From a candidate division WOR-1 bacterium RIFCSPHIGHO2_01_FULL_53_15 (GTDB lineage Bacteria > Margulisbacteria > WOR-1 > O2-12-FULL-45-9 > XYB2-FULL-48-7), in contig METM01000020.1 in NCBI GenBank assembly GCA_001772335.1, forward strand, positions 17,795 to 81,794: a DNA stretch of 64,000 nucleotides. The letters run 5' to 3'. The notes below the pieces were generated by a model that saw only the letters and a list, made by a program, of their open reading frames with translations, did not search any database and was not told the DNA's origin. Below are positions 9,578 to 63,646 of the stretch, piece after piece (the stretch's first letter is position 1; each line of letters starts with the position of its first letter). Made by a program: the position numbers and the translations under genes.

Positions 9578-10978
9578 ATGCCCTCATTTATCGACGAAAG
9601 TTTGATCCATGCTCTCCTCAAAGAACCAAAGTTCGCCTCGCCCAAGACAGCCGAAAATATCATACAGAAAGCGCTCATGCTCAAAGGGCTCTCCCTTGAA
9701 GAGACTGCCATCTTGCTCAACTGCCAGGACAAGCGGGTCCTCGCCAAATTATTCCGCGCTGCCCGAAAAGTCAAAGAAGCCATCTACGGCCGGCGCCTCG
9801 TCATCTTCGCGCCGCTCTATATCTCAAATTTTTGCGTCAATAACTGTCTCTATTGCGGTTTTCGCCGGGGGAACCTCGCGCTGGCCAGAAAACGGCTGAC
9901 GCTCGATGAAATAAGGGGAGAAGTCCGGGTCCTCGAAGAACAAGGGCACAAACGGATCCTGCTCGAGACGGGCGAAGAGCCGAAGGCCGGCATCGGTTTC
10001 CTGGAAAGAGCGATCAGGGCTATCTACTCGACAAAATACGGGCGCGGCGAGATCAGGCGCCTCAACGTCAACGCGCCGGCCATGTCGGTTGCGAATTTCC
10101 GCCGTTTGAAAAAGTGCGGGCTCGGAACATATCAGCTTTTTCAGGAGACCTATCACCGCGAAACCTACGAAAAAGTCCATCCCTCAGGACCAAAATCAGA
10201 TTTCATCTATCATTTATTCGCCATGCACCGGGCGCAGAAAGCGGGGATCGATGATGTGGGAATCGGCGTGCTCTTTGGTTTATACGACTATAAGTTCGAA
10301 GTTTTAGCCCTCCTCTCCCATGCCCTGGAGCTGGAGCAGCGGTTCGGCGTCGGCCCGCACACCATCTCGGTGCCGAGGATCGAGCCGGCTTCGAACGCCC
10401 CAATTGCCGGCAATCCCCCATACCCCATACCCGATACCGATTTTAAGAAGCTCGTCGCCATCCTGCGCCTGGCCGTCCCCTACACCGGGCTTATCCTCTC
10501 GACGCGCGAATCGGCCAAAATGAGGGATGAAGTGATCGGTCTCGGCATCTCGCAGATCAGCGCGGGATCAAAAACCGTCCCCGGCGGCTACAAAGCGTCG
10601 GAGAATAGGAATAGGAAGAGGAAGAAGGTTAGCGGCCAGTTTTCGATCAGCGACAACCGCTCGCTCGCCGAAGTGATCCGGGATATTTCAAAACGTGGTT
10701 ATTCGCCGAGCTTCTGCACCGCCTGCTACCGGCTGGGGCGCGTCGGTGCGGATTTCATGGATATGGCCAAGCCGGGGTTAATAAAAAACTTCTGTTTGCC
10801 CAATTCACTGCTGACCTATAAAGAATATCTGTTGGATTACGGGGATAAAGCGGCAAAGAAATTAGGAGAGAAAGTCATTAAGCGGCATTTAAAAGACATT
10901 ACAAACCGCAAGATCAAAGAAAAAACAATTGATAAACTGGCCGAACTGGAAACTGGCAACCGGGACCTGTACTTCTAG
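9578..10978 (+). CDS. hydG: HydG-type radical-SAM tyrosine lyase (the CO/CN-generating [FeFe]-hydrogenase maturase family)
   Basis: 466 aa. The N-terminal cluster motif is FAPLYISNFCVNNCLYCGF. A ThiH-like core follows. The HydG-specific C-terminal motif CTAC-x22-C (CX2CX22C) lies at FCTACYRLGRVGADFMDMAKPGLIKNFC. Confidence 0.8.
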   Translation: MPSFIDESLIHALLKEPKFASPKTAENIIQKALMLKGLSLEETAILLNCQDKRVLAKLFRAARKVKEAIYGRRLVIFAPLYISNFCVNNCLYCGFRRGNLALARKRLTLDEIRGEVRVLEEQGHKRILLETGEEPKAGIGFLERAIRAIYSTKYGRGEIRRLNVNAPAMSVANFRRLKKCGLGTYQLFQETYHRETYEKVHPSGPKSDFIYHLFAMHRAQKAGIDDVGIGVLFGLYDYKFEVLALLSHALELEQRFGVGPHTISVPRIEPASNAPIAGNPPYPIPDTDFKKLVAILRLAVPYTGLILSTRESAKMRDEVIGLGISQISAGSKTVPGGYKASENRNRKRKKVSGQFSISDNRSLAEVIRDISKRGYSPSFCTACYRLGRVGADFMDMAKPGLIKNFCLPNSLLTYKEYLLDYGDKAAKKLGEKVIKRHLKDITNRKIKEKTIDKLAELETGNRDLYF

Positions 10979-11010: not shown

Positions 11011-11286
11011 TCAGGCAGGCACTAATTCTCTTCGTCTGGTTAATTTTTTCATGCCTTCTGGGCTTAAGATCTTTAGCAACGGCACGTTAAATTGCTTGGC
11101 AAAAGTGTTCAATTCCTTGCCTGACACATGCACGGGGTTAATAAACTCAAACCCAAGAACTTTATTACGTTTGTCCAAATCGACATATATTTCATTTTCA
11201 GAATCCAGCTCAACTGTTTTACTAACCTTGCCTTCACTAACTTGAATATAAAGAAGCCCTTCCGACGCATCTAATGAAATTTGCAT
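11011..11286 (-). CDS. DUF2283-family small protein, a putative antitoxin-like partner
   Basis: 91 aa, reading MQISLDASEGLLYIQVSEGKVSKTVELDSENEIYVDLDKRNKVLGFEF, the DUF2283 pattern. It lies in an AT-rich island. Confidence 0.5.
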   Translation of the reverse strand: MQISLDASEGLLYIQVSEGKVSKTVELDSENEIYVDLDKRNKVLGFEFINPVHVSGKELNTFAKQFNVPLLKILSPEGMKKLTRRRELVPA

Positions 11287-11301
11287 CTTAACCCCTCCTT
11301 G

Positions 11302-11523
11302 TTATGCCCAATATGAAGTAATGATGAGAATAGAGCTGGCTTTCCGTAATTCGTAAACGACCCAAAGCAATTTACCATTCGTATTCCCGCATATCTTATG
11401 TCTCCCTTTTTTCTTTGCCGGGACAGAAGTAGTTTTGTTCTGTAGGGCGATTTTAATCTCGCTGATCTTAATTTTTCTTGAGCTTAATCTCTGCTTAGCA
11501 TGTGGAGTTAAACTGATTTTCAC
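11302..11523 (-). CDS. DUF4258-family small protein, a putative toxin-like partner
   Basis: 73 aa, with HAKQRLSSRKI, GKLLWVVYE and ILIITSYW, typical of DUF4258 paired with DUF2283. Confidence 0.5.
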   Translation of the reverse strand: MKISLTPHAKQRLSSRKIKISEIKIALQNKTTSVPAKKKGRHKICGNTNGKLLWVVYELRKASSILIITSYWA

Positions 11524-11567: not shown

Positions 11568-12029
11568 TTAGCTATGCACCAGCGAAACTAATTGCATGCT
11601 CGTTTCTTTTAGTTTCAGCGAGATGATCTCCGCTAATTTGTTCATGACGAGGTAGCCCCGCCGGCAGTCGTTCTTGAAGATCTTCTCGACCAGCTCATCC
11701 GCGTTGAGCGTGATCAGCTTGACGTTGTCCAGACACCTGGCGTCGGAGGCAAAGACCTTGGGCTTGGCGAGCGACGGATAGCCGAACATCTTCCCTTTAT
11801 TTTCAGTGTAAACCACGGCCTTTTTATTAGGCCCGATCTCGATTTCGATCGCGACGCGGCCTTCGAGCACGAGATAGATCTTTTCGGCCTTCGCCCCTTC
11901 TTTATAAACGTAGTCGCCCCCCTTGAATTCCTCGACCCTGGAGAGAGCGGCGATATCGCCCAGCTCGTCCAGTTTCAGGAATTCGAACAGGTTCATCCCT
12001 TTGAGTATTTCAGGCGTAACTGCCGGCAT
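11568..12029 (-). CDS. Cyclic-nucleotide-binding domain protein
   Basis: The cNMP-binding beta-barrel pattern is present (FKGGDYVYKEGAKAEKIYLVLEGRV). It is the last gene of the hydrogenase operon. Confidence 0.6.
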   Translation of the reverse strand: MPAVTPEILKGMNLFEFLKLDELGDIAALSRVEEFKGGDYVYKEGAKAEKIYLVLEGRVAIEIEIGPNKKAVVYTENKGKMFGYPSLAKPKVFASDARCLDNVKLITLNADELVEKIFKNDCRRGYLVMNKLAEIISLKLKETSMQLVSLVHS

Positions 12030-12474
12030 AATTGACCTCCTGTTTGATCTTCTCGACAATTTCTGGCATCTTTGCCTCGATCTCCGAACTCAATGACTCC
12101 AAATGCAGAACTTGCTTCGGCTGAACCCCGATGATTATAACATGGCCAAAATCTTCGTTTAAGCTTTGGCCAAGCTTAAGAACCTCGAACAGGCCAAACT
12201 CGTGCAAGGAAAAGTTCCGACTCACCGGCAGCCGCAAAAGTTCTTCGGCGCTGAATCTCGCGATGGCGCCCGGCGCTTTCCCCATCTCGACCGCGTCGAT
12301 CACCACCACTTTTGGAAAGCCTTTGAGTGTTTCAAAGAGCGACAAACCTCCGGTCGCGCCGTTGACCACTTCAACTTCGGGGCCAAGGTCGCCCAATCTA
12401 TCAAGCACCAAAACCCCGATCCCATCATCCCCTAACAAAGTGTTGCCCAGCCCGAGCACCAGGGTTTTAGCCAT
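12010..12474 (-). CDS. hycI: Hydrogenase maturation endopeptidase (HycI/HoxW family)
   Basis: The protein reads LVLGLGNTLLGDDGIGVLV...VVVIDAV, the protease signature. Confidence 0.8.
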   Translation of the reverse strand: MAKTLVLGLGNTLLGDDGIGVLVLDRLGDLGPEVEVVNGATGGLSLFETLKGFPKVVVIDAVEMGKAPGAIARFSAEELLRLPVSRNFSLHEFGLFEVLKLGQSLNEDFGHVIIIGVQPKQVLHLESLSSEIEAKMPEIVEKIKQEVNYAGSYA

Positions 12475-13799
12475 CAGACAAAATCGACTTTGAGCATGTG
12501 GACCGAGCAGGAGATGCAGGGGTCATACGCCCGGACAAGCATTTCCAGAAGCAGGGTTATCTCTTCCTGCGGCCGGTCGAGGATCGTCGGCACGAGCGCC
12601 CGCATGTCGTCCTCAATATTGGCCAGGTTCTGGCCGGTCGGGATGACGCAATTCGCCCACGAGAGGAGGCCGTCGTCATCGATGCGGTATTCGTGGAAGA
12701 GGACGCCGCGCGGCACTTCAACGGCACCCACCCCCCAGCATTTCTTGACCGGCGGCAGTTTGGCCGACCAGCCGGCGATGGTCTGGCGCTCGACCGTCTC
12801 GTCCTTGAGCCCGCGGCGCAGCAGCTCCTCGATCAAATAGATCATCCGCTCGATATTGTGGACCGATTCGACGACCTGCGCCGCCGAGATCAGGTAAGGA
12901 TTATAGTTGGGCGCGGCAAGGCCGAGCTTTTGCGCCGCGGCTTTCGCGGCCGGCATCAGCTGGTCAGAGTTGATATTGAAACGTGAAAGAGCGCCCACCA
13001 TGTACGGCCGGAACGGTCCTTTGGCTTGTTTGGCGGTCGAATGGAGCACCACTTCTTCTTTGACCTTGTTCTTATAATCCCGGTGCCTGGTCTCGCCGGT
13101 TTCCGTAGAATGAATGATCCCGTCGTAATAAGCGTACTCGTCGGGATGTTTGAGGGCGACATAATCGGTCTTTCTCTCAAAAGCAGGGAATTTCAACGAG
13201 GCGAAAAGGTCAAGCGTTGGTGGGACATCATCGGAGAGCATCGTCTTGAGCTGTTTGAGCGCGTCCCGCAGCTGCGCTTCCGTTGGAATATGAGTGAAAC
13301 CGTCGACGACCATCGAGATCGGATGCGGGTGCCGCCCGGCAATGATCGTTACGATATCATCGGCTAATTTCTTCATGCGCAGGGCGCGCTTGACGACATC
13401 GGGATGGCTGGCCGCTAACGGAATGACGCTCGGCACGCTGAAGAAATCAGGTGCGACGAGAAAATAATAGTGCAGGACGTGTGATTGCATGATCTCGGCT
13501 TCCAGCACGGCTTTTCTTAAGAGCAGCGTTTGCTCCGACGGCTCGATGCCGAGAGCGTCCTCGAGCGCCCGCAGTGAGGCGGTCGTGTGGCCGACGGCGC
13601 AGATGCCGCAGATGCGGCTGGTGATCTGGGGCGCTTCGGGAAAGCGCCGGCCGCGCAGCATCGCCTCAAAAAAGCGCGGCGACTCGACGATCTGCAGTTC
13701 CACTTTTTTGAGCTCGCCGCTCTGCACGTCGATGACGATATTGCCGTGGCCTTCGACGCGAGCCACGTGATGGACATTTATATTAATGTCTTTTGACAC
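12474..13799 (-). CDS. hydA: [NiFe]-hydrogenase large (alpha) subunit, group 3b sulfhydrogenase-like
   Basis: The N-terminal motif is RICGICAVGH. The C-terminal motif is DPCISCSVH, followed by a cleavable MLKVDFV tail. Confidence 0.9.
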   Translation of the reverse strand: MSKDININVHHVARVEGHGNIVIDVQSGELKKVELQIVESPRFFEAMLRGRRFPEAPQITSRICGICAVGHTTASLRALEDALGIEPSEQTLLLRKAVLEAEIMQSHVLHYYFLVAPDFFSVPSVIPLAASHPDVVKRALRMKKLADDIVTIIAGRHPHPISMVVDGFTHIPTEAQLRDALKQLKTMLSDDVPPTLDLFASLKFPAFERKTDYVALKHPDEYAYYDGIIHSTETGETRHRDYKNKVKEEVVLHSTAKQAKGPFRPYMVGALSRFNINSDQLMPAAKAAAQKLGLAAPNYNPYLISAAQVVESVHNIERMIYLIEELLRRGLKDETVERQTIAGWSAKLPPVKKCWGVGAVEVPRGVLFHEYRIDDDGLLSWANCVIPTGQNLANIEDDMRALVPTILDRPQEEITLLLEMLVRAYDPCISCSVHMLKVDFV

Positions 13800-14551
13800 T
13801 ACTTGCCAACCTCCATCATCCCATTTAACATGCGGTAGAATTTCAAACTCTCCTCAACAGTCAAACCGGCGCCGGAGAGGGTCTCCTGATGGGCGTTGAG
13901 GTTCGGCTCCTCGACCAGCCCGCGGCAGCCGATGCAGGCGTTGCCGTAGCTCGGGCAGTGGGCGCTGCAACCGGCGCGGGTGACAGGGCCCAGGCAGGTG
14001 ATCGGCCTCTCTTTGTGGAACGTGCAGACGTTCCCCTTCATCTTGCACTGGACGCAGACCGGGAAGTTCGGTATATACGGTTTCTTCCCCTGCAGGATCG
14101 CCGTCACGATCTCGACAAACTCTTCGCCGTCGCGGTTCGGGGGACAGCCGCGCGAATAATAATCGACCTTGACGACGGCGTCGATCGGCTGGGCCAGGAT
14201 CGAATCGAAATTGGCGACCTTATCGCCGTAAACGGATTTTTTGATCTCGAACTGGTTGTCGAAGTTCCTGATGCAATTGATGCCGCCGATATGGGCGCAG
14301 GCGCCGAGCGCGATCAGGATTTTGGCCTGTTGTCTGATCGCGCGGATCTCCTCGATCTCGTGGACGGTGGAGAGGGCGCCTTCGACGATCGCCACGTCGT
14401 AATCCTCGCCCTTGTAGCTTGAGGCCTCGCGGAAGTTGACGACCTCAACGGCGCCGAGGAGATCGAAGAGCTTGTCGGCCATCGAGAGGACGACGAGCTG
14501 GCAGCCCTCGCAGCTCGTGAAACTGAAAAACCCGACTTTCGGTTTACTCAT
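13799..14551 (-). CDS. hydD: [NiFe]-hydrogenase small (delta) subunit
   Basis: It shows the FTSCEGCQ proximal-cluster motif and additional Cys clusters. Its start/stop (ATGA) overlaps the large-subunit gene. Confidence 0.85.
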   Translation of the reverse strand: MSKPKVGFFSFTSCEGCQLVVLSMADKLFDLLGAVEVVNFREASSYKGEDYDVAIVEGALSTVHEIEEIRAIRQQAKILIALGACAHIGGINCIRNFDNQFEIKKSVYGDKVANFDSILAQPIDAVVKVDYYSRGCPPNRDGEEFVEIVTAILQGKKPYIPNFPVCVQCKMKGNVCTFHKERPITCLGPVTRAGCSAHCPSYGNACIGCRGLVEEPNLNAHQETLSGAGLTVEESLKFYRMLNGMMEVGK

Positions 14552-14552
14552 A

Positions 14553-15374
14553 TTAAATACTTTCCGGTATTTTCTTGAGCTCGGCGTAGTTAAAGACCGG
14601 TCCGTCCTGGCAGACGTAGATCTCGTTCATCTGGCAGTGGCCGCACTTGCCGACGCCGCACTTCATCTTGCGTTCAAGCGACATCCAGATATTGGCATCC
14701 GCCAGCCGCCGGGCCTTGAGCTCCTTGATCACGAAACGGTACATGACCGGCGGGCCGACGATGACCGCCTGGGTCTTTTTTTCGTCGATCTCGACGCGGG
14801 GGATGAGCGTCGTGATGACGCCGACGTCGCCCTGCCAGTTCTCATCGCCCAGGTCAACCGTGATCATGCACTCAACAGTGCCGCCGCACTCCCACGATTT
14901 CAGTTCCCCCTTGAACAAGAGATCGCGCGGCGTCTTACAGCCATAGAGGACATTGATCTTGCCGTATTCCGGCCGCCGATTGAGGACTTCAAGGATCAGC
15001 GACCGCAGAGGGACCAGCCCGATCCCGCCCGCGATGAAGAGGATATCCTTGCCCTTGAACCTGGCGATGTCAAAACCGTTGCCGAACGGGCCGCGGATGC
15101 CGATCTTGTCGCCGACTTTCTTCTCGAGTAAGGCGTTGGTAACGTTGCCCACCTTTCTGACGCAGAGCTCGAAAGTCGGCTTGTCGGGCTCCGGCGCGGA
15201 AGAGATGGAGATCGGCGCTTCACCGATACCAAAGATCGAGACCTCGACGAACTGGCCCGGTTTGTGGCCGAGCGTTTTTCTCTCCGTCAACTCAAGCTCA
15301 AAAAAGGTCTCGAGCGGCGTCTGGGGGATGACTTTTTTAATGACGGCCAATTCCGGCGTATAAAGCGTTTTCAT
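14553..15374 (-). CDS. hydG: Sulfhydrogenase gamma subunit-like oxidoreductase with FAD/NAD(P)-binding and a [2Fe-2S] domain
   Basis: A ferredoxin-reductase-like fold is followed by a C-terminal CGVGKCGHCQ motif. The likely start MKTLYTPEL overlaps the beta-subunit stop (ATGA). Confidence 0.8.
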   Translation of the reverse strand: MKTLYTPELAVIKKVIPQTPLETFFELELTERKTLGHKPGQFVEVSIFGIGEAPISISSAPEPDKPTFELCVRKVGNVTNALLEKKVGDKIGIRGPFGNGFDIARFKGKDILFIAGGIGLVPLRSLILEVLNRRPEYGKINVLYGCKTPRDLLFKGELKSWECGGTVECMITVDLGDENWQGDVGVITTLIPRVEIDEKKTQAVIVGPPVMYRFVIKELKARRLADANIWMSLERKMKCGVGKCGHCQMNEIYVCQDGPVFNYAELKKIPESI

Positions 15375-16408
15375 ATTTTCCTCGAATAAATCTCGTTGGC
15401 GATCTCTAAGGGACTGACGATCTTTGTCAGGCAGGCCTTGATGCAGCGGCCGCAGCCGGTGCAGAACGACTCGCCCCATTTATCGAAGAGGTAATTGAGC
15501 TTGCGGTAGGTGCGGTGGCGCAGGCGGTGCGAGCGGTCTTCGCGGAAGTTCTCGCCCGAAGCGACCTTGGCGAATTCTTCGGTCATACAGCCGTCCCAGA
15601 CGCGGCTGCGCACTCCCTTGACCAAACTGACGTGCATGTAATCCTGCACGTCAAAACAATAACAGGTTGGGCAGACCATGTTGCACGAACCGCAGCCGTA
15701 GCAGAGTTTGCCGTGCTCCTCCCAGACCGGATGATCAACGTTCGCTTTCATCAATTTCGGCAGATCCTGATATTTCGGCAGGAGTTTTTTCTCTTTCTTG
15801 TCAAAGATTAAGTTCCGCTTTTTCCTGACGGCCGAAAGTTTCTTCTTATCGGCGGCCTTCGCCGCCACCGCCCCCTCGATCAGCGCCTCGCCTTTCGGTG
15901 TGGCCGCCTCGGCAGAGAATGAATTCCCGATATCGGTCAAAAAGAGATCGAAACGGCCTTTGGGATCGAGGCCGCCCAGGCGCAGGCAGATCGCCTCCGG
16001 CGAACATGGAGTGAGGCAGTCGACGCCGACAAGCGTCATCGCCTTGCGTTTTGCGGGGTAATTCGAGTCGATGTTCTTTTCCGCCCAGACGCGGTCCATC
16101 TGGCCGATAGCATTGAGATCGCAGGGATGGACACCGAAGAGTATCCTCTCTTTGACGGTATTGAGCCCGGTTATTTTGACCTCATCGTTGCTGAATTCAT
16201 AGGCCAGCAGATCCTCTGACTGCGGATATAAGAATTGTTTCGGCGGGATGACGGTTTGCGGCGCGCCCCAGACGATCTGGTCGGGTGAGCTGAGCGGGGC
16301 AAAGGCGGTAAAGTTCTCATGGGCGACCGGGGCGATGACCTCGTTCGTCTTGATCAGGTTTTCGATCAGATCATTGAGCCGCTCTTTTTTGACGATATAG
16401 TTCTTCAT
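15371..16408 (-). CDS. hydB: Sulfhydrogenase beta subunit-like Fe-S protein (AsrA/HydB family)
   Basis: 345 aa with two Cys clusters (CYGCGSCNMVCPTCYC and CTGCGRCIKAC). Confidence 0.8.
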   Translation of the reverse strand: MKNYIVKKERLNDLIENLIKTNEVIAPVAHENFTAFAPLSSPDQIVWGAPQTVIPPKQFLYPQSEDLLAYEFSNDEVKITGLNTVKERILFGVHPCDLNAIGQMDRVWAEKNIDSNYPAKRKAMTLVGVDCLTPCSPEAICLRLGGLDPKGRFDLFLTDIGNSFSAEAATPKGEALIEGAVAAKAADKKKLSAVRKKRNLIFDKKEKKLLPKYQDLPKLMKANVDHPVWEEHGKLCYGCGSCNMVCPTCYCFDVQDYMHVSLVKGVRSRVWDGCMTEEFAKVASGENFREDRSHRLRHRTYRKLNYLFDKWGESFCTGCGRCIKACLTKIVSPLEIANEIYSRKI

Positions 16409-16642
16409 TCACTCTACGCGGATCGACTCGAGCACCAGCTCTTCGCCGCTCGTCGAATCGATCTCCAGCCGGGCGGCTTCGGCCTTGGTTCCCCTCGCCG
16501 CTTCCCTGAAGAGATATTCTATATCATGCGGCCGGGCGTGGCAATTCTCGCCGACCTTCAGACGGACGGCTTCGACTCTTCTCCCCTCACAACGGGCCAG
16601 AACTTCCCTCAAAACGTCAGCGACCAGCTTTAAGCCATGCAT
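16409..16642 (-). CDS. HypA-like N-terminal nickel-binding domain protein lacking the zinc-finger C-terminal domain
   Basis: 77 aa, reading MHGLKLVADVLREVLARCEGRRVEAVRLKVGENCHARPHDIEYLFREAARGTKAEAARLEI, which parallels the HypA N-domain (MHE...). It stops without any CxxC pair. Its stop overlaps the hydB start. Confidence 0.45.
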   Translation of the reverse strand: MHGLKLVADVLREVLARCEGRRVEAVRLKVGENCHARPHDIEYLFREAARGTKAEAARLEIDSTSGEELVLESIRVE

Positions 16643-17914
16643 TTAAATTCCCAGATCGGTCGGCGCCCGGCCCAGGGAATAGAGGAGATCGAGCGTCGCC
16701 TTGATCTGCGCTTCGATCGTTTCTTCGGCGTGAGCGCGGCCGGGATAAATTTCGTAGAGCTTTCGGTATTTGAGCGGCGTCACGTTGAGCATGACGGAGT
16801 TCGCGCCGGCCATCAGACCAAGTTTTTGGGCGCTGGGCTCAAGCGTTTCAAAGCCGGTCGTGACGAGTATCCTCGCGTTTTTCGGATCGACCAGCCGGCT
16901 GACGGCGAGGACTTTAAGGACAAGCTCGGTCTTCGGCCCGTACGGCAGGACCGGACCGAACGAATACATCTCGGCGTTCAGCTCTTTGGTCAATAATATG
17001 TCATCCAGCAAGCTTTCGATCGACTGGCCGGGGAGGCCGATCAAGCCACCGGTCAGGACGAGATAGCCAAGAGAATAAGCGTCTCGTATATTTTGAAGAC
17101 GCTCTTCGAGCTTATCGCCGCAGTGAAGATTGGCATAAAGCTTCGGGTCGCTCGTCTCAAACCTCGTCAGAACGCCTCTCGCTCCGGCGTCATAAAATTT
17201 CTGGAGCCCTTCCCTGCCAACCTCCCCAACCGAAATGAAGATCAAAACTGGATATCGCTTCTTGATCTCCTTGATCACCCCTACGACTCGATCCACTTGA
17301 TATTCTTGATCCTCTCCCGACTGGAGGACTAAAGCCTTAAACCCATGCTTCTCTATCGCCTCCCCCGCCGCCTCAACGATCTCCTCCTCGCTCATCCGAT
17401 ACCTCTTTAAGATCGAATTGCTTTTTCGTATACCGCAATAGACGCAGTCGTGCCGGCAGTAGTTGGAAAATTCAATTATGCCGTGGACACAGCAGGAATT
17501 CGAGAGATATTTCTGGCGCAGGAAGTTGGCCGTCTTAAAGAGCTGGTCGAGCTCGGCCGGCTTTTCGGTGGCCAGGAGTTTTAACAGTTCTTCTCTTTTC
17601 AGCTCACGCCCCTCTGCCGCTTTGTCGAGGATTAGCGAAAGATCATTGCCGATCCCGGTCTCCTCTTTCGGGCGGCGCGAGAGGCGCAGATCCGTCTCGC
17701 GCAGTTCAAAGAATGTTTCTTTCCAGAGCTCGAGCGTGGCCAGCGCCTCTGGCTCGGGCACCACCTTGATCACATAGCCCCCCTGGGCGTAGATGAAGTC
17801 GCCGGCCTTTAGCTCCGCGATCTCATTGATCGCCTTCTTCTTTTCGCCAAAGTATTCGACCGTGACGGTCTTGCTGTTTATTTCGACAACCTGGCCGGGG
17901 ATGGCGTAGCACAT
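16643..17914 (-). CDS. Fusion of a HypC/HupF-like N-domain with a HydE-type radical-SAM enzyme
   Basis: Residues 1-70, MCYAIPGQVVEI...GDFIYAQGGYVIKVV, match the HypC signature (Cys2, MC-x-A-[IV]-P). The rest reads GIIEFSNYCRHDCVYCGIRKSN (CX3CX2C) with a BioB/HydE-like TIM barrel of ~350 aa. Confidence 0.7.
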   Translation of the reverse strand: MCYAIPGQVVEINSKTVTVEYFGEKKKAINEIAELKAGDFIYAQGGYVIKVVPEPEALATLELWKETFFELRETDLRLSRRPKEETGIGNDLSLILDKAAEGRELKREELLKLLATEKPAELDQLFKTANFLRQKYLSNSCCVHGIIEFSNYCRHDCVYCGIRKSNSILKRYRMSEEEIVEAAGEAIEKHGFKALVLQSGEDQEYQVDRVVGVIKEIKKRYPVLIFISVGEVGREGLQKFYDAGARGVLTRFETSDPKLYANLHCGDKLEERLQNIRDAYSLGYLVLTGGLIGLPGQSIESLLDDILLTKELNAEMYSFGPVLPYGPKTELVLKVLAVSRLVDPKNARILVTTGFETLEPSAQKLGLMAGANSVMLNVTPLKYRKLYEIYPGRAHAEETIEAQIKATLDLLYSLGRAPTDLGI

Positions 17915-37739: not shown

Positions 37740-38837
37740 TTATTTGTCCTCGGCGACGCGGAAGCCAACGAAGTCGAGGCGATCCTTGGGAAGAGCGGCG
37801 CTCCGGTACGCGCTCCGCAAATTGCCGGAATCTTCGTCTTCCCACGACCCGCCACGAATAGCTCTCAATATGCCAGTTTCAGGTCCCTTAGGATCAATCA
37901 AATCTTCAGAATCATACAGGTCATGCCAATCCGCTCTCCATTCCCCAACATTGCCAGAGAGGCCCATAACGCCGAAAAAAAGGCTGGCTCCATCAGGATG
38001 AGCATCTACGGGACTCGTCCTATCGGTATTGAAAGTCACCCTTGAAAGATCAAGTTTGTTGCCCCAGGGATATATTAACCCTACATGTCCTCTTGCCGCG
38101 TACTCGCCTTCGGCTTCGGTCAGCAGCCGTCGCCCGTGCCATAGGGAAAAATTATTGGCATCATCATAGTCAACGCCAACAACTGGATTCTTCGGCTGAT
38201 CTTTTCCAAATTTTTCGTCTTCCCAATATTCCGGCGCGCGATAGCCGGTTTGCCCCATGTATATTCCATATTGTTCATTGGTAACCTCATATTTACCACT
38301 CCTGAAAGCGGAGATTGTCGCTTCCCTCACCGGCTGTTCGGTTGAATCTTCCGTGCTGCCCATCGGGAATTTCCCGGCCGGGATATTAACCGTCTCCAGC
38401 TCGATTTCCGGCATCTGCCATTCCAGCAAAGAAGCGATATCCGATATCTTCACAATAGATAACTTCCCTGCCCTCTCTTTGATCTGACTGCCAAATAATG
38501 CGGTGACATTGGTTATATGCGGCGCGATGACCTGGCCCAAAAGCGCTTTTCGCTTCGCGGCATCAGTAGTCGCCTCAAGCAATTGGCCGGCTTTATTCAG
38601 CCATTCACCGCTCATACTGGCGCGGGCCAGCACCGCTGACGGGAACAACTTCGTTTGTTTGCCCCAAGCTTCGCGCCTGGCCGCGTTGACGCCTAAATAT
38701 TTATTAAACACACCGATACCGGCGGCCTGCTTTACTTTTAATTCGCCGGTCATCACCGCATGGGCGTGAAGCATCGCCCCCGCCAGCATCCGTCCCGAAA
38801 CATTCCCTTTTACCAATAATTGATTTGCCATATTCAT
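37740..38837 (-). CDS. FGE-sulfatase (SUMF1/EgtB-like) domain protein with an uncharacterised ~135 aa N-terminal domain
   Basis: The C-terminal region (YRAPEYWEDE, LSGNVGEWRADW, RGGSW) is typical of the formylglycine-generating enzyme fold. There is no signal peptide. Confidence 0.6.
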   Translation of the reverse strand: MNMANQLLVKGNVSGRMLAGAMLHAHAVMTGELKVKQAAGIGVFNKYLGVNAARREAWGKQTKLFPSAVLARASMSGEWLNKAGQLLEATTDAAKRKALLGQVIAPHITNVTALFGSQIKERAGKLSIVKISDIASLLEWQMPEIELETVNIPAGKFPMGSTEDSTEQPVREATISAFRSGKYEVTNEQYGIYMGQTGYRAPEYWEDEKFGKDQPKNPVVGVDYDDANNFSLWHGRRLLTEAEGEYAARGHVGLIYPWGNKLDLSRVTFNTDRTSPVDAHPDGASLFFGVMGLSGNVGEWRADWHDLYDSEDLIDPKGPETGILRAIRGGSWEDEDSGNLRSAYRSAALPKDRLDFVGFRVAEDK

Positions 38838-38947
38838 CTTCCTCCCGTTTACTATAACCCGAATTCTTGGTACAATTGTTTATCGGCAGGGGTTCCTAGA
38901 AATTTCAGGGGATTTTGGGAAATTGCGGGATTAGGGGGGATCGAAGA

Positions 38948-39286
38948 ATGATTGGAAAGCTGAACGAAATTGAAGAAAAGGCGGTTAAGGAATTTACTCA
39001 TGAATTAAGATCCTTTGCCGGTAGAAGCGTTAAACAGGTCTTGTTGTTCGGCTCAAAAGCCAGGGGCGATTTCAATAAAGAATCCGATCTTGATTTATTT
39101 GTGCTTGTCGGGCAAGCCGATCGCGATTTAAGGCGCAAAGCCGCGCAGATCGTAAATGAAATCCTGCTTAAATACGGCGTTTTGATCTCGCCGAGATTAA
39201 TTCCCGAAATCCGCTATGCTTTCCAAAAACGCCTGGAAACCGGTTTTATAAAAAATGTTGAACGGGACGGCATAGAGATTGAATAA
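38948..39286 (+). CDS. Nucleotidyltransferase (MNT-like) antitoxin component
   Basis: It has the LLFGSKARGDFNKESDLDLFVLV Pol-beta NTase motif. The RBS is AGGGGGGA. Confidence 0.7.
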   Translation: MIGKLNEIEEKAVKEFTHELRSFAGRSVKQVLLFGSKARGDFNKESDLDLFVLVGQADRDLRRKAAQIVNEILLKYGVLISPRLIPEIRYAFQKRLETGFIKNVERDGIEIE

Positions 39287-39686
39287 AGAAACCTTAAAAG
39301 AAAAGATCCGCCTTGAGTTGGAAAGAGGGGATGAATCGCTGAAAAGCGCCGGGCTGAATTTAAGGGAAGCGCTGTTTGACGAGTCAGTTTCCAGCGCTTA
39401 TTACGCGATGTTTCATTCGATCAAAGCCGTTTTATTGACCATCGGACAAGAGCCGGCCACTCATCAGGGGGTTGTCGCCCTTTTTGGCCTGCACTTTATT
39501 AAGCCCGGGCTGATCGAAAAAGAATACAACGCTCTTTTTATCGAGGCCAAAGATGACAGGGAAGACAGTGATTACGATGTCACTAGAAAATTTATCAAAG
39601 CCGAGGCTGAAGAGCGGCTTTTAGCGGCGCAAAAACTTGTTTCCCGAATTCATAAATATTTATCTGAAAAAGATTTTATCAGTTAA
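39279..39686 (+). CDS. HEPN-domain toxin component
   Basis: It shows an all-alpha HEPN pattern (SAYYAMFHSIKAVLL). It overlaps MNT by 8 nt. Confidence 0.65.
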   Translation: MNKETLKEKIRLELERGDESLKSAGLNLREALFDESVSSAYYAMFHSIKAVLLTIGQEPATHQGVVALFGLHFIKPGLIEKEYNALFIEAKDDREDSDYDVTRKFIKAEAEERLLAAQKLVSRIHKYLSEKDFIS

Positions 39687-39692
39687 TAGATC

Positions 39693-40946
39693 ATGGGCAA
39701 AACTATCGCCGAAAAAATACTCTCGAGCCACTCCGGCCGCGACGCCAAAGCGGGAGACATTGTCATTGCCGATCTCGACTTCATGATCGGCCAGGATGGA
39801 ACATCGGGCGTCGCCATCGATTCTTTCCGCAAGATGAACGCCAAGAAGGTCTTTGACCCGAAGAAGATAGCCATCATTATTGACCACAGCTCCCCCTCCC
39901 CCAACGAAGGAGTTTCAGCAATCCATAAAAAGATCCGCGAGTTCTCTAAAGAACAAGGCATCTCTCTCTACGACATCGGCTGCGGCGTCTGCCACCAGAT
40001 CACGCCGGAGCAGGGCCACGTCGTGCCGGGCGATCTGGCCATCGGCGCCGACTCGCACACCTGCACCTACGGCGCCATCAATGTCTTTTCGACCGGCATC
40101 GGCTCGACCGATCTGGCCGCCGGCATGATCTCGGGCAAGCTCTGGTTCAAGGCCCCCGAAACGCTGAAGGTCGTCTTCAAAGGCAATTTCCCTAAAGGCG
40201 TCTATTCGAAAGACCTGATCTTGAACTTTATCGGCAAGATCGGCGCCGACGGCGCGACTTATCTGGCGCTCGAATTTTACGGCGATGTCATCAAGGCGAT
40301 GTCGGTCGACGCCCGCATGACCATCTCCAACATGGCGATCGAGTGCGGCGCTAAGGTCGGCATCATGGAGGCAGACGAGAAAACCCTCGCCTACGAAAAA
40401 CTGCACGCGACGAGGAAGCCCAACCCCGTCTCGGCCGACAAGGACGCTGTCTATAAAGAGGTTATTGAGATCGACATCACAAAGCTCGAGCCGCAGATCG
40501 CCAAGCCCCACACCGTTGACAACGTCTCACCGATCTCGCAAGTCCTCGGCACGCCGATCCAACAGGCCTATATTGGCACCTGCACCAACGGCCGACTCGA
40601 GGATTTCCAGATCGCGGCGAAAATGCTTAAGGGGAAGAAAGTCCATAAGGACTGCCGCCTGATCATCGCCCCTGCGTCAAAGGAAATAATGCTCGATATG
40701 ATCAATGACGGGACCTATCAGACGCTCATTGAAGCCGGCGCGGTCGGCGTCACCCCCGGCTGCGGGCCTTGCGTCGGCACCCACAACGGCGTCCCCTCCG
40801 ACGGCGAGAACGTCATCTCTTCCGCCAACCGCAACTTCAAAGGCCGCATGGGCAATCCCAACGCTTTTATCTATCTGGCCTCGCCGGCCACGGTGGCGGC
40901 TTCGATGCTTGAGGGAAAGATCGCCGACCCGAGGAAATATTTATGA
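39693..40946 (+). CDS. leuC: 3-isopropylmalate/homoaconitate dehydratase large subunit (archaeal-type, 417 aa)
   Basis: It has the aconitase-family Fe-S ligands (CTNGRLED, CGPCVG). Confidence 0.8.
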   Translation: MGKTIAEKILSSHSGRDAKAGDIVIADLDFMIGQDGTSGVAIDSFRKMNAKKVFDPKKIAIIIDHSSPSPNEGVSAIHKKIREFSKEQGISLYDIGCGVCHQITPEQGHVVPGDLAIGADSHTCTYGAINVFSTGIGSTDLAAGMISGKLWFKAPETLKVVFKGNFPKGVYSKDLILNFIGKIGADGATYLALEFYGDVIKAMSVDARMTISNMAIECGAKVGIMEADEKTLAYEKLHATRKPNPVSADKDAVYKEVIEIDITKLEPQIAKPHTVDNVSPISQVLGTPIQQAYIGTCTNGRLEDFQIAAKMLKGKKVHKDCRLIIAPASKEIMLDMINDGTYQTLIEAGAVGVTPGCGPCVGTHNGVPSDGENVISSANRNFKGRMGNPNAFIYLASPATVAASMLEGKIADPRKYL

Positions 40947-57248: not shown

Positions 57249-58333
57249 TTATACACCAAAGCGGATCAGAAGTAAATCCCCGTCCTCGACCGCATATTCC
57301 TTCCCTTCGGTGTGGACAAGCCCCTTTTCTTTGGCTTTGGCCATCGTGCCGGAGGCGATAAAATCATGGTAGTGGACAACCTCGGCGGCGATATAGCCGC
57401 GTTCCATGTCGGAGTGGATCCTGCCGGCCGCCTGCGGCGCTTTGGCGCCGCGGGTGATCGTCCAGGCGTGGGAATCCTTCTCGCCGGCGGTAAAAAACGT
57501 GATCAGGTTGAGCAATTCGTAACCGGCGCGGATCAGTTTAGCGAGCGCCGCTTCCTTGACCCCCAGCTCGGCCAGGTAGGCCTGCGCGTCCTCGGGAGTG
57601 AGTTCGGCCAGCTCGGCCTCGAGTTTGGAGGAGATGGTCACCACGCGAGCATTCTCTTCTTTGGCGATCGCCCGGATGATCTCGACCTGGTCGTGGTCCC
57701 CCGATTCGTCGACGTTGGCGGCATAGAGGACCGGCTTGACGGTCAAAAGCGAGAGCTCCTTCAAGAATTCCCGGTCCTTGTCCTCGATGTGGAAGTTACG
57801 GGCCACTCGCCCGGCTGCCAGCCAGTCATAGAGCTCCAGCAAAAAAGCGTTCTCTCGGACAGCGCGCGGGTCGCCGGTCTTGACCCTTGGCTTGATATAA
57901 GTCATTCTCTTATCGGCCTGCGACATGTCGGCCAAACTTAATTCCAGGTTAATGATCTCGATGTCGCGTTTGGGGTTAACTTCCCCCTCAACATGGACAA
58001 TCTCCTCGCTCTTGAAACAGCGCACCACGTGGAGGATGGCGTCAACCTCGCGGATGTTGGCCAAAAACTTGTTGCCCAGCCCTTCCCCCCGGCTTGCCCC
58101 CTTGACCAGCCCGGCGATATCGTAGAACTCGATGATGGCCGGCACGATCTTCTTGGAGCTGAACATTTTGGCCAGCGTCTGCAGCCGCTCATCCGGCACC
58201 TCGACCACGCCGATGTTCGGGTCGATGGTGCAGAACGGATAGTTCGACACGTTCGCCTTCGCCCGAGAGAGCGCGTTAAAGAGCGACGATTTGCCGACAT
58301 TGGGAAGGCCGACGATACCGAGGGAAAAGCTCA
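57249..58333 (-). CDS. ychF: Ribosome-binding ATPase YchF
   Basis: It has [12 protein letters not shown] (G1), the TGS domain and the YchF C-terminus. The start is placed at [11 protein letters not shown], preceded by TGCTATAAT 6 nt upstream (leaderless). Coordinates are +/-1 nt. Confidence 0.85.
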
Positions 58334-58349
58334 TGTAAAGATTATAGCA
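58269..58349. repeat. Direct repeat copy 1 (~81 bp), the native ychF 5' end plus promoter
   Basis: I read it directly. It is near-identical to 59022..59102, with 3 substitutions and one 2-bp indel. Confidence 0.8.
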
Positions 58350-58381
58350 TATACGCTCTGGGACCCTGCTATAATTGCTGT

Positions 58382-58747
58382 ATGTCCGACAAAAAGGAAG
58401 TTTATATTGTTGGCGGCCCGAACGGCGCGGGGAAGACAACCTTTGTTGCGCAATTCCTTCCAAAATATGTGAACGTTTCCAATTTCATTAATGCCGATAA
58501 TATTGCCAAAGGGCTCTCTCCGCTTGGCGCCCCGCTAATGGACATCACTTCAGGCAAACTGATGCTAAAATTGATCGACAAATATCGTAATAAAGGAGAA
58601 AACTTTGCTTTTGAAGAAACTTTAGCCGGCAAGACGTTGGTCTCGAGCAAGACACCGGAGCTGATCGCCAATAATATCGCCGGAGAATTAAAAGTGATCG
58701 ACCCGAAATATTTGAAAATTTTTGAAGATACTTTAGGTGAGAGATAA
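58382..58747 (+). CDS. Zeta-toxin/AAA-like P-loop protein, probably a C-terminally truncated remnant
   Basis: The protein reads YIVGGPNGAGKTTF. It is 121 aa where the family typically runs ~190-250 aa. It lies between the direct repeats. Confidence 0.45.
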   Translation: MSDKKEVYIVGGPNGAGKTTFVAQFLPKYVNVSNFINADNIAKGLSPLGAPLMDITSGKLMLKLIDKYRNKGENFAFEETLAGKTLVSSKTPELIANNIAGELKVIDPKYLKIFEDTLGER

Positions 58748-58752
58748 ACAAT

Positions 58753-58950
58753 ATGGTGCCGCGCGATAAAACCGATAAGCTTGGACAAATGGCGGAGAAG
58801 GCCCTGAAAGAAGCCGTCAAGGGAGCGCTCGAACAGCATCGCCGCATGAAAGTCCCCGCTGTTTACATGCGAAACGGCAGGATCGTTTATTTAATGCCGG
58901 ACGGCAGGGTGGTCAATAAGCCCAATGACCGCAAAAGCGCAAAGAAGTAG
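58753..58950 (+). CDS. Hypothetical small basic protein (65 aa)
   Basis: The ORF sits immediately downstream of the P-loop gene and inside the repeat-bounded cassette. Confidence 0.3.
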   Translation: MVPRDKTDKLGQMAEKALKEAVKGALEQHRRMKVPAVYMRNGRIVYLMPDGRVVNKPNDRKSAKK

Positions 58951-59021
58951 CTTTCCTCTCCCCTCCCCTCTCCTGCCTTGACTCTGACTTTCCTATAGGA
59001 CTACTGCAAATTAGTCAAGAC

Positions 59022-59102
59022 AGCGCGTTAAAGAGCGACGATTTGCCGACATTGGGGAGGCCGACGATCCCGAGGGAAAAGCTCATAAGATTATTATAGC
59101 AT
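59022..59102. pseudogene. Direct repeat copy 2, a duplicated ychF promoter plus the first 23 codons ([23 protein letters not shown]) with no downstream continuation
   Basis: Its reverse complement contains TATAAT, an ATG and a ychF N-terminal fragment that ends abruptly. Confidence 0.7.
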
Positions 59103-59163
59103 GACAGAAACTTGAAGACCCTTCTGATATTCTGATATACTGATATTCTGAATAACCTGACAC

Positions 59164-59235
59164 GGCCCCATCGTCTAGGGGTTAGGACACCAGCTTTTCA
59201 AGCTGAGAACCGGGGTTCGATTCCCCGTGGGGCTA
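59164..59235 (+). tRNA. tRNA-Glu (anticodon UUC)
   Basis: I folded the cloverleaf by hand. The acceptor is GGCCCCA/TGGGGCT and the T-arm has GGTTCGATTCC. The anticodon loop is TTTTCAA with TTC at positions 34-36. No CCA is encoded. Confidence 0.8.
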
Positions 59236-59267
59236 ATTTTTCTCTTGGTCTTAGAGTAATCAAATTT

Positions 59268-61505: not shown

Positions 61506-63070
61506 CGCTGTTTTAAAAGCTTTTCGAGCAGTTCGTCCACCGGGATGCTGGCCACATGCGATTCCGAGTCGGAAATGGCGTAAGGGATGATCAATTCGCT
61601 GTTGAGTATGATAGAACCGCAGCTGTAAACCACGTTGGGCACATAGCCCTCGCGCTCCTCTTCCCGCGGCATAAGCAGCGGCTCTTCCAGCCGCCCGATT
61701 ATTTTCGAGGGATCTTTCAGGTCTAAAAGCACAACGCCAATGCAGTATTTGCGCATCGGCCCCACACCGTGGGTTAGCAGTATCCAACCTTTTTTGGTTT
61801 CGAGCGGTGACCCACAATTGCCTATCTGTACCAGTTCCCAGCTTTTTTCCGGCGCTTCAATCTTACCCCCTTCAAACCAGAAATGGATATTATTGGAATA
61901 GCTTAAGTAAAGGTTTTCCCCGTCGCTGCGCGTGATCATGGCATATTGTCCGTTGATCTTGCGCGGGAAAAGAGCCATCCCCTTATTGCGCGCCAGGGGA
62001 CCGTTGAGGGTTGAGATCTTGAAATGGTGGAAATCTTTTGTTTCGATCAATTGAGGCAGTATTTCCCGGCCGTTATAAGCGGTATAGGTCGCATAGTAGG
62101 CAACACTGCCGTCTTCGTCAACAAAACGGACAAAACGCGCGTCTTCCACCCCGTTGCTTTCGTTTTGCGAGAGAGGAAAAATGACCCTTTCCGAGATCAA
62201 TTGTCCGTGCGGGAAAAAGACCTCATAATTTGATTCCGCCAGCCACCTGATGTGGACGATGGTGTCATCCAGGTCGCTGGAGGTAAAGGAGTTGCTATTG
62301 CGGATGGTGTTGATCGCCTGGCCCATTTCTTCCAGATTGAAGCTCTCCTTCAATTGCTGGTAGATCGCCTTTGCCGCTTCGCTGAACTGTCCCATTTCCT
62401 CAAGTTTGGCCTTGAACAGCTCCCGGTCGTAAGTCGCATTCAAAACGATCTCGGGTGTGCCCAAAAATGGGCTGACCGATTCCAGAAAAATTGAATTATC
62501 TTTGTCAATAATGGCGCTGCGGAAAACGATCGAGGAGATATGCCCTTCGCCGGTGGCGCGGAAGCTGAAGATCGCGCGGGTTTGCCCCTTCTTCATCTGG
62601 TTCTGTTTGGGATAGATGACGATCGAAGGATTAAAAAGGGCGGCCGATTCGATAGAGTATTCCATCGTAAAACAGGCGCCGAGCAGGAGTTTTCTTTCCT
62701 CTGACAGGGTCGCCGGCTCCTTGATGTTTCCCTCGATCTTCCGGTAATTACTCATCAGGATAGTTTGAATATCCTTGTGGCGGTGCGCAAATTCTTTGAG
62801 CGTTTGCTTGAGCAGCTCTTTTGCTCTCGGTTCGTCCAGCGCCAGGATGCGGCTGATGATGTTTGTCATGTGGTTTTCGCTGCGGGGGTGGAAAGGCCGC
62901 GTAATTACTCTTCTCTTGTCCGGGCGGATATTTTTTAAGGTTTTATTGGTGATGCGCTTAAATAGGCGCGAAATAATGACCGGATCATGGAGCGCGGATT
63001 TGCCCAGTTGCTTATGGGCGATCAAAACCTCCGCGTTTTTTCCAAAAGGAACTTTCTGCTCTTTAGCCAT
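61502..63070 (-). CDS. GH130-like beta-mannoside phosphorylase-family protein with a ~220 aa N-terminal extension
   Basis: The C-terminal region (EDARFVRF, YYATYTAY, beta-propeller) is GH130/DUF377-like. Confidence 0.55.
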   Translation of the reverse strand: MAKEQKVPFGKNAEVLIAHKQLGKSALHDPVIISRLFKRITNKTLKNIRPDKRRVITRPFHPRSENHMTNIISRILALDEPRAKELLKQTLKEFAHRHKDIQTILMSNYRKIEGNIKEPATLSEERKLLLGACFTMEYSIESAALFNPSIVIYPKQNQMKKGQTRAIFSFRATGEGHISSIVFRSAIIDKDNSIFLESVSPFLGTPEIVLNATYDRELFKAKLEEMGQFSEAAKAIYQQLKESFNLEEMGQAINTIRNSNSFTSSDLDDTIVHIRWLAESNYEVFFPHGQLISERVIFPLSQNESNGVEDARFVRFVDEDGSVAYYATYTAYNGREILPQLIETKDFHHFKISTLNGPLARNKGMALFPRKINGQYAMITRSDGENLYLSYSNNIHFWFEGGKIEAPEKSWELVQIGNCGSPLETKKGWILLTHGVGPMRKYCIGVVLLDLKDPSKIIGRLEEPLLMPREEEREGYVPNVVYSCGSIILNSELIIPYAISDSESHVASIPVDELLEKLLKQR

Positions 63071-63170
63071 GGTGTTATTATATTATGCTTAATGCGGCGA
63101 AAAAGCAATGAGCGCGCGCCGGTCGGTTAGCCCCGCTGAAATATTCTCTCATGCTTGCCGATAAACATCC

Positions 63171-63632: not shown

Positions 63633-63646
63633 CGCGGTTCTAGGGT

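Follow-up and report, generated by a model that had tools for sequence, protein, structure and literature searches.

[NiFe] and [FeFe] hydrogenases are unrelated enzymes, and their iron sites share carbon monoxide (CO) and cyanide (CN) ligands. In the textbook account the ligands of the former derive from carbamoyl phosphate via HypEF on a HypCD scaffold, and those of the latter from tyrosine via HydG, HydE and HydF. What, then, is to be made of a gene that encodes a HypC domain and a HydE-type radical S-adenosylmethionine (radical-SAM) enzyme as a single polypeptide? Such a gene lies at 16643..17914 on the minus strand of the 64,000 nucleotides analyzed here (the window), i.e., positions 17,795 to 81,794 of contig METM01000020.1 of RIFCSPHIGHO2_01_FULL_53_15, a bacterium of candidate division WOR-1 (assembly GCA_001772335.1). 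A sequence-only reading had suggested that its product would be a covalent bridge between the two maturation systems, encoded next to a [NiFe] hydrogenase operon. Our preferred answer, to which we give slightly better than even odds (about 0.55), is a recruitment of HydG and of an enzyme of the HydE type to [NiFe] maturation, in which the fused HypC domain stands in for HydF as acceptor and carrier of the iron-carbonyl/cyanide unit, and probably for the HypCD scaffold with its HypEF cyanide supply as well. The component families are all known, and it is their wiring that is new.

The open reading frame (ORF) is intact and encodes 423 residues, beginning MCYAIPGQVVEINSKTVTVEYFG and also holding GDFIYAQGGYVIKVV and GIIEFSNYCRHDCVYCGIRKSN. 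Its parts are as follows (TmHydE, the HydE of T. maritima; pLDDT, the predicted local distance difference test score):

17681..17914, minus strand: HypC/HupF-like N-domain, residues 1-78, with a Met-Cys start, a five-stranded barrel and a C-terminal helix (Pfam, match to 2z1c, AlphaFold2)
17633..17680, minus strand: interdomain linker, residues 79-94, the least confident block of the AlphaFold2 model (pLDDT ~75)
16646..17632, minus strand: HydE-type radical-SAM TIM barrel, residues 95-423 (TIGR03956, TmHydE alignment, Foldseek), followed by the stop codon at 16643-16645
17435..17458, minus strand: codons for the radical-SAM cluster motif CX3CX2C (C153, C157, C160), read directly from the sequence
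16967..16969, minus strand: Met316, the equivalent of TmHydE Met224, mapped by alignment to TmHydE
16790..16792, minus strand: Met375, the equivalent of TmHydE Met291, mapped by the same alignment

The assignment of the first ~70 residues to HypC/HupF was borne out. PF01455 (HupF_HypC) matches residues 1-64 at 46.5 bits (E 4e-12; gathering cut-off 28.5), and the best solved relatives are HypC structures rather than any other small barrel: T. kodakarensis HypC 2z1c, to which residues 1-67 align at E 3.6e-8, and 3vyr, with a sequence match to 3d3r as well. The protein starts MCYAIPG, i.e., with the expected Cys2 signature. As in HypC, HybG and HupF (E. coli; T. kodakarensis, 2Z1C), there is an MC-x-x-[IV]-P motif with an invariant Cys2, and a C-terminal helix comes after a small beta-barrel. 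An AlphaFold2 model built from an alignment of 52 sequences (mean pLDDT 93.3; predicted template-modelling score, pTM, 0.92) has the predicted two-domain form of a barrel-plus-helix N-domain, a linker (modelled with lower confidence at residues 79-89) and a HydE-like TIM barrel, packed as one compact unit; the N-domain has five strands within residues 7-52 and a helix at 54-78, at a pLDDT of ~90. The linker differs in length among homologues and is deleted in the protein of an Omnitrophota locus, L003 (L numbers denote loci throughout).

The remainder of the protein belongs, as had been proposed, with HydE rather than with PylB, BioB or ThiH. Pfam Radical_SAM covers residues 147-305 (69.2 bits), and the top NCBIfam match is HydE TIGR03956 (232.1 bits, E 1e-68, residues 96-398), with PylB at 139, BioB at 93, ThiH at 72 and HmdB at 66 bits. 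Among the sequences of solved structures, residues 95-418 align to residues 16-344 of TmHydE at E 4e-66, compared with 6e-24 for PylB. The modelled barrel is full-length in comparison with TmHydE (PDB 3CIW, 5FEW, 7O1O; 38-40% identity), the Foldseek superposition giving a root-mean-square deviation of 1.5-1.8 Å over ~340 residues and a target TM of 0.90-0.93 (PylB, 3.7 Å). An identity as PylB, BioB, ThiH or HmdB was ruled out by profile scores, solved structures and fold. The CX3CX2C cysteines C153, C157 and C160 are invariant in both of the fusion alignments, A1 and A2, as are M316 and M375, the equivalents of M224 and M291; at the position of TmHydE K309 the family has either K or R (R393 in the window protein). 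In TmHydE, M224 is proposed to bind Fe(I)(CO)2(CN)S and M291 to be a second methionine that holds Fe(I), the two being proposed as well to support dimerization into the [2Fe] product (PMC11826987). The fusion, like TmHydE, has a bona fide HydG as its genomic partner; unlike TmHydE, it has an N-terminal HypC domain and lacks C-terminal auxiliary-cluster cysteines. There is no curated model for a HypC-HydE fusion in NCBIfam or Pfam.

Do the two domains truly belong to one gene, or have separate hypC and hydE genes been joined by an error of sequencing, assembly or gene calling? Orthologous fusions were sought in public data, and of the 120 top-matching clusters at 90% identity, which come from NCBI, JGI, ENA and Logan assemblies and have 64-100% identity to the window protein, all but two (118) contain both PF01455 and PF04055. 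A search of 1.84 billion 50%-identity representatives revealed ~20 more fusion clusters, with identity down to 37%. The source labels include Margulisbacteria/Saganbacteria, Omnitrophota, and metagenome-assembled genomes labelled Deltaproteobacteria and Pseudomonadota, with further fusions in other phyla at 37-60% identity; the public annotations disagree with one another ("biotin synthase", "radical SAM protein", "[FeFe] ... HydE", "HypC/HybG/HupF chaperone"). In three lineages the polypeptide is extended by HydG to a HypC-HydE-HydG triple fusion: P0124 (906 aa), P0132 (881 aa) and L029 (920 aa). What could speak for an artefact is that unfused HydE relatives exist (L044, P0139), and that L021:428-1723 has an in-frame stop in its linker (..WKETFF*LQEKD). 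That gene is on a 2.2-kb metagenome contig of coverage 2, and the stop is probably a sequencing error, with a split gene being possible. Against an artefact are the unbroken fusions, which span several phyla and 37-100% identity and stem from projects and assemblers independent of one another, the three lineages that add HydG, and the single compact unit of the model (pTM 0.92), and we put its probability close to nil. A 779-aa "fusion" at L004 was discarded as a spurious ORF, in which a masked run of N (GTDB record, ~11060-11170) joins the fusion ORF to a downstream DUF362/4Fe-4S gene.

With which genes, then, does the fusion travel? Thirty-five non-redundant fusion loci (483 kb, with ±10 kb around each fusion covered) were gathered from one GTDB genome scan, one JGI metagenome scan and single-protein look-ups, with 23 unfused-HydE loci and 32 standalone-HypC loci from the same metagenome scan as controls; the tblastn queries were window proteins, E. 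coli HypA-F (NC_000913) and a HydF taken from a control locus. HydG is within 10 kb of the fusion in 20 of the 35 loci, often in translational coupling with it, and is part of the polypeptide in three further instances; nearly all of the neighbouring HydGs retain the C-terminal CX2CX22C site needed for synthon building. A [NiFe] large subunit, mostly group 3b-like, is near it in 18 loci (12 clear, 6 weak). Where 3 kb or more is available on each side of the fusion, as it is in 18 loci, 14 have such a subunit. HypD, HypE, HypF and HydF gave no tblastn match in any of the 35. Among the controls, any of HypD/E/F is near 20/32 standalone HypCs (Fisher p = 4e-9 vs the fusions), with HypD directly beside HypC in 17/32, and HydF accompanies 5/6 unfused HydE+HydG loci vs 0/20 HydG-bearing fusion loci (p = 9e-5). 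L044, the sole unfused HydE+HydG control without HydF, is itself 6 kb from a 3b operon.

The gene orders are similarly telling of the company kept by the fusion. In Omnitrophota L003 the order is beta-gamma-delta-alpha, protease, HydG, fusion, with the HydG and fusion genes overlapping at their stop and start; in Omnitrophota L002 it is beta-gamma-delta-alpha, protease, mini-HypA, fusion, Rex, HydG; and in L009, which has the same gene set as the window, it is beta-gamma-delta-alpha, protease, a cyclic-nucleotide-monophosphate (cNMP) protein, triple fusion. L014 (protease, HypA, HypB, fusion, HydG, the last two translationally coupled) and L035 (HypA, HypB, fusion, HydG) have the HydE and HydG genes in the slot where hypD and hypE normally follow hypC. 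In L015 a nickel/cobalt transporter (NicO) gene precedes a 3b operon, protease and fusion.

In the window itself, HydG lies 6 kb from the fusion, convergent with a four-subunit hydrogenase operon. The features are:

16409..16642, minus strand: mini-HypA, 77 aa, starting MH.. (Pfam HypA 35.6 bits, profile positions 1-68 of 112)
15371..16408, minus strand: group 3b-type beta subunit, AsrA/HydB-like, iron-sulfur (Fe-S) protein (sulfhyd_HydB 181 bits, ShyB 172 bits; Pfam Fer4_22)
14553..15374, minus strand: gamma subunit, FAD/NAD(P)-binding (AsrB 257 bits, cytochrome-c3 hydrogenase gamma 251 bits)
13799..14551, minus strand: delta (small) [NiFe] subunit (sulfhyd_HydD 198.5 bits; Pfam Oxidored_q6)
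12474..13799, minus strand: alpha (large) [NiFe] subunit (sulfhyd_ShyA 278 bits, HydA 252 bits; Pfam NiFeSe_Hases)
12010..12474, minus strand: maturation endopeptidase, HycI/HybD type (TIGR00072 123.4 bits, cut-off 47.45; Pfam HycI)
11568..12059, minus strand: cNMP-binding-domain protein, the last gene of the operon (Pfam cNMP_binding 46.7 bits)
9578..10978, plus strand: HydG, of the radical-SAM tyrosine lyase/Fe(CO)2(CN) synthon synthase family (TIGR03955 539.2 bits, cut-off 312)

The window HydG has both the CX3CX2C motif and the C-terminal CX2CX22C motif CTACYRLGRVGADFMDMAKPGLIKNFC that separates HydG from ThiH. The junctions around the fusion are tight: upstream, the maf stop and the fusion start overlap as TAATG; downstream, the fusion stop TAA directly abuts the ATG of the HypA-like gene, whose TGA in turn directly abuts the ATG of the beta subunit. 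The abutting stop and start codons, from which the fusion had been read as translationally coupled to a HypA-like gene and to the operon of a group 3b-type enzyme, are real; the HypA-like gene, for its part, is only a truncated "mini-HypA", the N-terminal nickel-binding half without the zinc-finger half. Pfam revealed similar mini-HypAs of 80-84 aa at L002:9644-9886 (60.4 bits), L012:18951-19205 (31.5) and, weakly, L003:3536-3778 (23.2), and those of the module (77-84 aa) cover only positions 1-70 of the 112 of the HypA profile; as a tblastn query, the window mini-HypA found no counterpart in the other loci, although Pfam did show those three. The best NCBIfam matches of the beta-gamma-delta-alpha set are all sulfhydrogenase (group 3b) subunits, with all four scoring far below the equivalog cut-offs of the characterized Pyrococcus enzymes (e.g., ShyA, 278 vs 700), and the enzyme has been termed "putative group 3b" (PMC6349859). 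The large subunit has the motifs RICGICAVGH and DPCISCSVH and a 7-residue C-terminal extension, on account of which ordinary nickel-site ligands and proteolytic processing would be expected. The mechanical ORF of the gamma subunit reaches 15479 and overruns the preceding gene; the subunit likely starts at its Met36 (nt 15374), which abuts the stop codon of beta. The bridge between two maturation systems that the sequence-only reading had pictured gains strength from the HydG gene 6 kb away, the triple fusions and the recurrence beside [NiFe] hydrogenases in several phyla, and the function itself we infer.

Several other observations on this region can be noted here. The mechanical ORF of the cNMP gene overruns the preceding gene, its true start is likely an internal Met, and a public record (L104) has 142 aa; the gene also comes after the protease at L009 and L029, both of them loci with a triple fusion (tblastn 80 bits). 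It and the Rex-type redox-sensing regulator (Put_DNA-bind_N + CoA_binding) encoded between fusion and HydG at L002:11411-12079 may be dedicated regulators. Between HydG and the operon, at 11011-11523 on the minus strand, is a toxin-antitoxin-like DUF4258/DUF2283 gene pair (73 and 91 aa), in the stretch with the lowest guanine-plus-cytosine (GC) content of the region (0.49 vs ~0.56). GC also dips at 38001-40000 and 58001-64000 of the window (0.48-0.51 vs ~0.56-0.59 elsewhere).

If HydG and HydE are present, is the target not simply an [FeFe] hydrogenase encoded elsewhere? In that case the protein would be an ordinary HydE whose HypC-like carrier replaces HydF, and its adjacency to [NiFe] genes would reflect co-regulation of hydrogen metabolism. 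Some NCBI records do name members "[FeFe] hydrogenase H-cluster radical SAM maturase HydE", the Omnitrophota orthologue L003 clears the HydE equivalog cut-off (267.4 vs 254.6), and the two methionines proposed for [2Fe] dimer formation are conserved. However, Matheus Carnevali et al. (PMC6349859) list the genome as Saganbacteria HO1A (1.56 Mb, ~98% complete), whose fusion protein is 100% identical to that of the window, and they give it a single hydrogenase, of the [NiFe] kind and termed "putative group 3b". For the eight representative Saganbacteria genomes of that study, HO1A included, only "putative group 3b" and group 4 [NiFe] hydrogenases, and no [FeFe] hydrogenase, are listed (PMC6349859, Supplementary Data 1, 22); maturation genes are not discussed there, and the supplements tabulate no Hyp/Hyd maturation genes. 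The absence of HydF from the 483 kb around the fusions speaks against this explanation too, as does the linkage, with overlapping stop and start codons, to a [NiFe]-specific endopeptidase, HypA, HypB and large subunit. A HydA motif was likewise not matched anywhere in the loci, a scan made uninformative by its failure to match the canonical HydEFG control loci either. We regard an [FeFe] target as very unlikely.

Neighbour-joining on 91 sequences and 308 columns, with capped distances and bootstrapping, placed the fusion radical-SAM domains with HydE and grouped all 38 of them together on the full data (bootstrap 17%). The fusions and two unfused, [NiFe]-adjacent HydEs, L044 and P0139, form a clade with 70% bootstrap, and TmHydE and the HydF-linked HydEs fall outside that clade in 91% of replicates. 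The context of P0139, checked after its placement in the tree, is that the HydE start overlaps the final codons of a [NiFe] large-subunit gene (..DPCMSCAAHFLKVRWNEA*) and that HydG follows; P0143, the next-closest unfused representative, has a canonical-looking context. Unfused HydE+HydG pairs tied to [NiFe] genes were seen at L044:9989-12434 and L100:147-2693, with the HydE start overlapping the stop of a [NiFe] large-subunit gene in L100, and no HypC was found in the sequence available around either pair. Elsewhere in the family, another HydE clade (P0164, P0168, P0173, P0175) has an N-terminal fusion to PF11823, "putative Se/S carrier protein-like", and a third group (P0151, P0181, P0208) has an N-domain of ~100 aa with no assigned family. 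HydE seems to have gained small carrier-type N-domains repeatedly.

That the partners of the enzyme vary in this way, as the Se_S_carrier domains attest, could also mean that the trio makes something else, i.e., a different iron-organometallic or sulfur cofactor, or that it serves an Fe-S/flavin subunit such as an AsrA/AsrB-like beta-gamma pair. At L001, L006, L019, L020, L032 and L033, Saganbacteria-like loci that resemble the window most, AsrA/AsrB-like genes come directly after the fusion, and a formate-dehydrogenase/group 4 [NiFe] cluster comes after those. Yet a large subunit of the [NiFe] type is still present in every such AsrA/AsrB plus group 4-type cluster, HypC is not known to do anything other than bring the iron unit to large subunits of [NiFe] enzymes, and nearly all of the fusion-associated HydGs have kept their C-terminal synthon site. 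A different product or target appears unlikely to us.

Recruitment to [NiFe] maturation, by comparison, can be laid out as a sequence of steps, of which the first two are suggested by the known activities of the HydG and HydE families. HydG would cleave tyrosine and assemble a [Fe(Cys)(CO)2(CN)] synthon on its C-terminal cluster, and the HydE domain of the fusion would remove the cysteine by SAM radical chemistry, its product being an Fe(I) carbonyl/cyanide species seated on the two conserved methionines. This product, which in [FeFe] systems goes to HydF, would be caught by the N-terminal Cys of the attached HypC domain. The HypC domain would then dock on the [NiFe] hydrogenase's large subunit in its apo form (group 3b-type, or group 4-type in some relatives) and deliver the iron unit, as a canonical HypC does. 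Finally, nickel insertion would be aided by mini-HypA, and by HypB where present, and the co-encoded endopeptidase would trim the C-terminus. What the analysis establishes is which domains these are, that the fusion is conserved, and that it is linked in genomes to HydG and [NiFe] genes but not to HydF or HypD/E/F; each of the chemical steps, the hand-over to Cys2 and the dispensability of HypD/E/F are predictions, the chemistry being that of the characterized families. In its fullest form, which we hold only tentatively, the pathway would yield a HypD/E/F-free [NiFe] site with all its diatomic ligands supplied from tyrosine via HydG, the HydE domain processing the synthon and the His-less fused HypC taking over from HydF as well as from the HypCD scaffold.

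The "His-less" nature of the domain refers to His51 of E. coli HypC, a residue thought to help Cys2 hold the iron unit on HypC-HypD. In the 33 aligned fusion N-domains, including those with a GTG start, Cys2 and Pro6 are kept throughout, and the His51 position is never His: it is Gln in 24 and some other residue in 9, the window protein having Gln. Standalone HypCs have His51 in 27/33, among them all 20 that adjoin HypD/E/F. Five standalone HypCs have Gln or Asn instead (L068:10001-10204, L076:4069-4263, L086:639-842, L072, L093): none is near HypD/E/F, three of the five are beside 3b-type subunits, and HydE/HydG are not within reach of them either. The loss fits a HypC domain that may no longer work on a HypD scaffold; it is also a caveat to the assignment of the domain as HypC.

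A number of points weigh against the recruitment of HydG and HydE to [NiFe] maturation, the case for which rests on sequence and genomic context. HydG/HydE chemistry leads to Fe(CO)2(CN), and the canonical [NiFe] site is Fe(CO)(CN)2, a mismatch that requires either a further exchange of ligands or an atypical active site. The conservation of both methionines proposed for [2Fe] dimerization fits an [FeFe]-type product equally well. The window fusion scores slightly below the cut-offs of both NCBIfam models, at 232.1 bits against the 254.6 of the TIGR03956 equivalog and 44.5 bits against the 48 of hypC_hupF TIGR00074. No hydrogenase is present within 10 kb of the fusion in L007/L008, L013 and L036, a lack seen in two of the Saganbacteria-like loci closest to the window, and the fusions-only clade, in a simple neighbour-joining tree, has weak support. 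Lastly, hyp genes are often scattered, and the HypD/E/F negative holds for ±10 kb per fusion and for 84 kb around the window: a profile scan of the ~30 largest window ORFs revealed no HypB/D/E/F, HydF or HydA, and by tblastn neither HypD/E/F nor HydF turned up in any part of the 64-kb window or in the 10 kb past either of its ends. On the other side of the ledger, the triple HypC-HydE-HydG fusions count as Rosetta-stone evidence for the proposal.

The ligand mismatch and the local nature of the HypD/E/F scan lead to the chief rival, in which the role of the fusion is auxiliary: cyanides and scaffold would still come from HypD/E/F encoded elsewhere, the attached HypC would receive only CO, or a pre-carbonylated iron, from HydG and the HydE domain, and HypC would then join HypD as usual. 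We know of no established source of CO in anaerobic [NiFe] maturation, and HydG is a proven CO generator; this arrangement would resolve the discrepancy between 2 CO:1 CN and 1 CO:2 CN, and it would agree with the retention of HypA, HypB and the protease. It is harder to reconcile with HypD being near none of the 35 fusions but directly beside HypC in over half of the standalone controls, with the absence from the fused HypC of the His51 that every HypD/E/F-adjacent control HypC has, and with the HydE and HydG genes taking the hypD/hypE slot after hypA-hypB in L014 and L035. Considering both sides, an auxiliary role seems to us rather improbable, and recruitment with HypC as the acceptor in place of HydF remains our preference.

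How does this compare with known systems? With HypC chaperones the fusion shares a location in [NiFe] operons beside HypA, HypB and an endopeptidase; unlike them, it is not a free protein of ~80 aa, it has His51 replaced in every instance, and it is never adjacent to HypD/E/F. It differs from the HydE/HydF/HydG system in never being linked to HydF, in being set in [NiFe]/Hyp operons and in belonging to a clade apart from the HydF-linked HydEs. Maturase fusions themselves have a precedent in HydEF of Chlamydomonas. In that protein, and in the Se_S_carrier-HydE proteins, HydE is likewise covalently joined to a handler of its substrate or product, but those stay within the [FeFe] system, whereas HypC-HydE joins two systems. 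Another parallel is HypX, the source of the CO ligand for [NiFe] hydrogenases in aerobes, which uses formyl-tetrahydrofolate chemistry: it too is a dedicated accessory enzyme that gives a diatomic ligand to the Hyp machinery, although its enzyme family is an unrelated one, confined to aerobes. In archaea, hybrid [FeFe]/[NiFe] hydrogenase complexes have been described, together with the argument that there must be alternative, as yet unknown maturation routes (Greening et al., Cell 2024, PMC11216029). These hybrids resemble the loci described here in having [FeFe] and [NiFe] components in one gene cluster; unlike the HypC-HydE module, they concern structural subunits, in archaea mostly without HydEFG, and neither a HypC-HydE fusion nor a [NiFe]-adjacent HydG is mentioned in that work. 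No description of a HypC-HydE fusion, or of HydG/HydE beside [NiFe] operons, was found in the full-text literature, and most subscription journals are outside that coverage, so an earlier description is possible.

The gene neighbours suggest that some anaerobic bacteria make the iron-carbonyl/cyanide unit of [NiFe] hydrogenases by "[FeFe]" chemistry. If this is true, nature has cross-wired two ligand-making pathways that have been regarded as separate, and the finding bears on the long-standing question of the origin of CO in anaerobic [NiFe] enzymes. A HypD/E/F-free route, if true, would be a third, hybrid pathway of hydrogenase maturation, with a defined anaerobic source of CO for a [NiFe] enzyme and possibly a non-canonical CO/CN ratio at its site. 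A compact maturation set of 2-3 genes could ease the heterologous production of [NiFe] hydrogenases. And for the lineages that carry the fusion there is a consequence for how their metabolism is read from genomes: surveys that score HydE and HydG as markers of [FeFe] metabolism will misread them.

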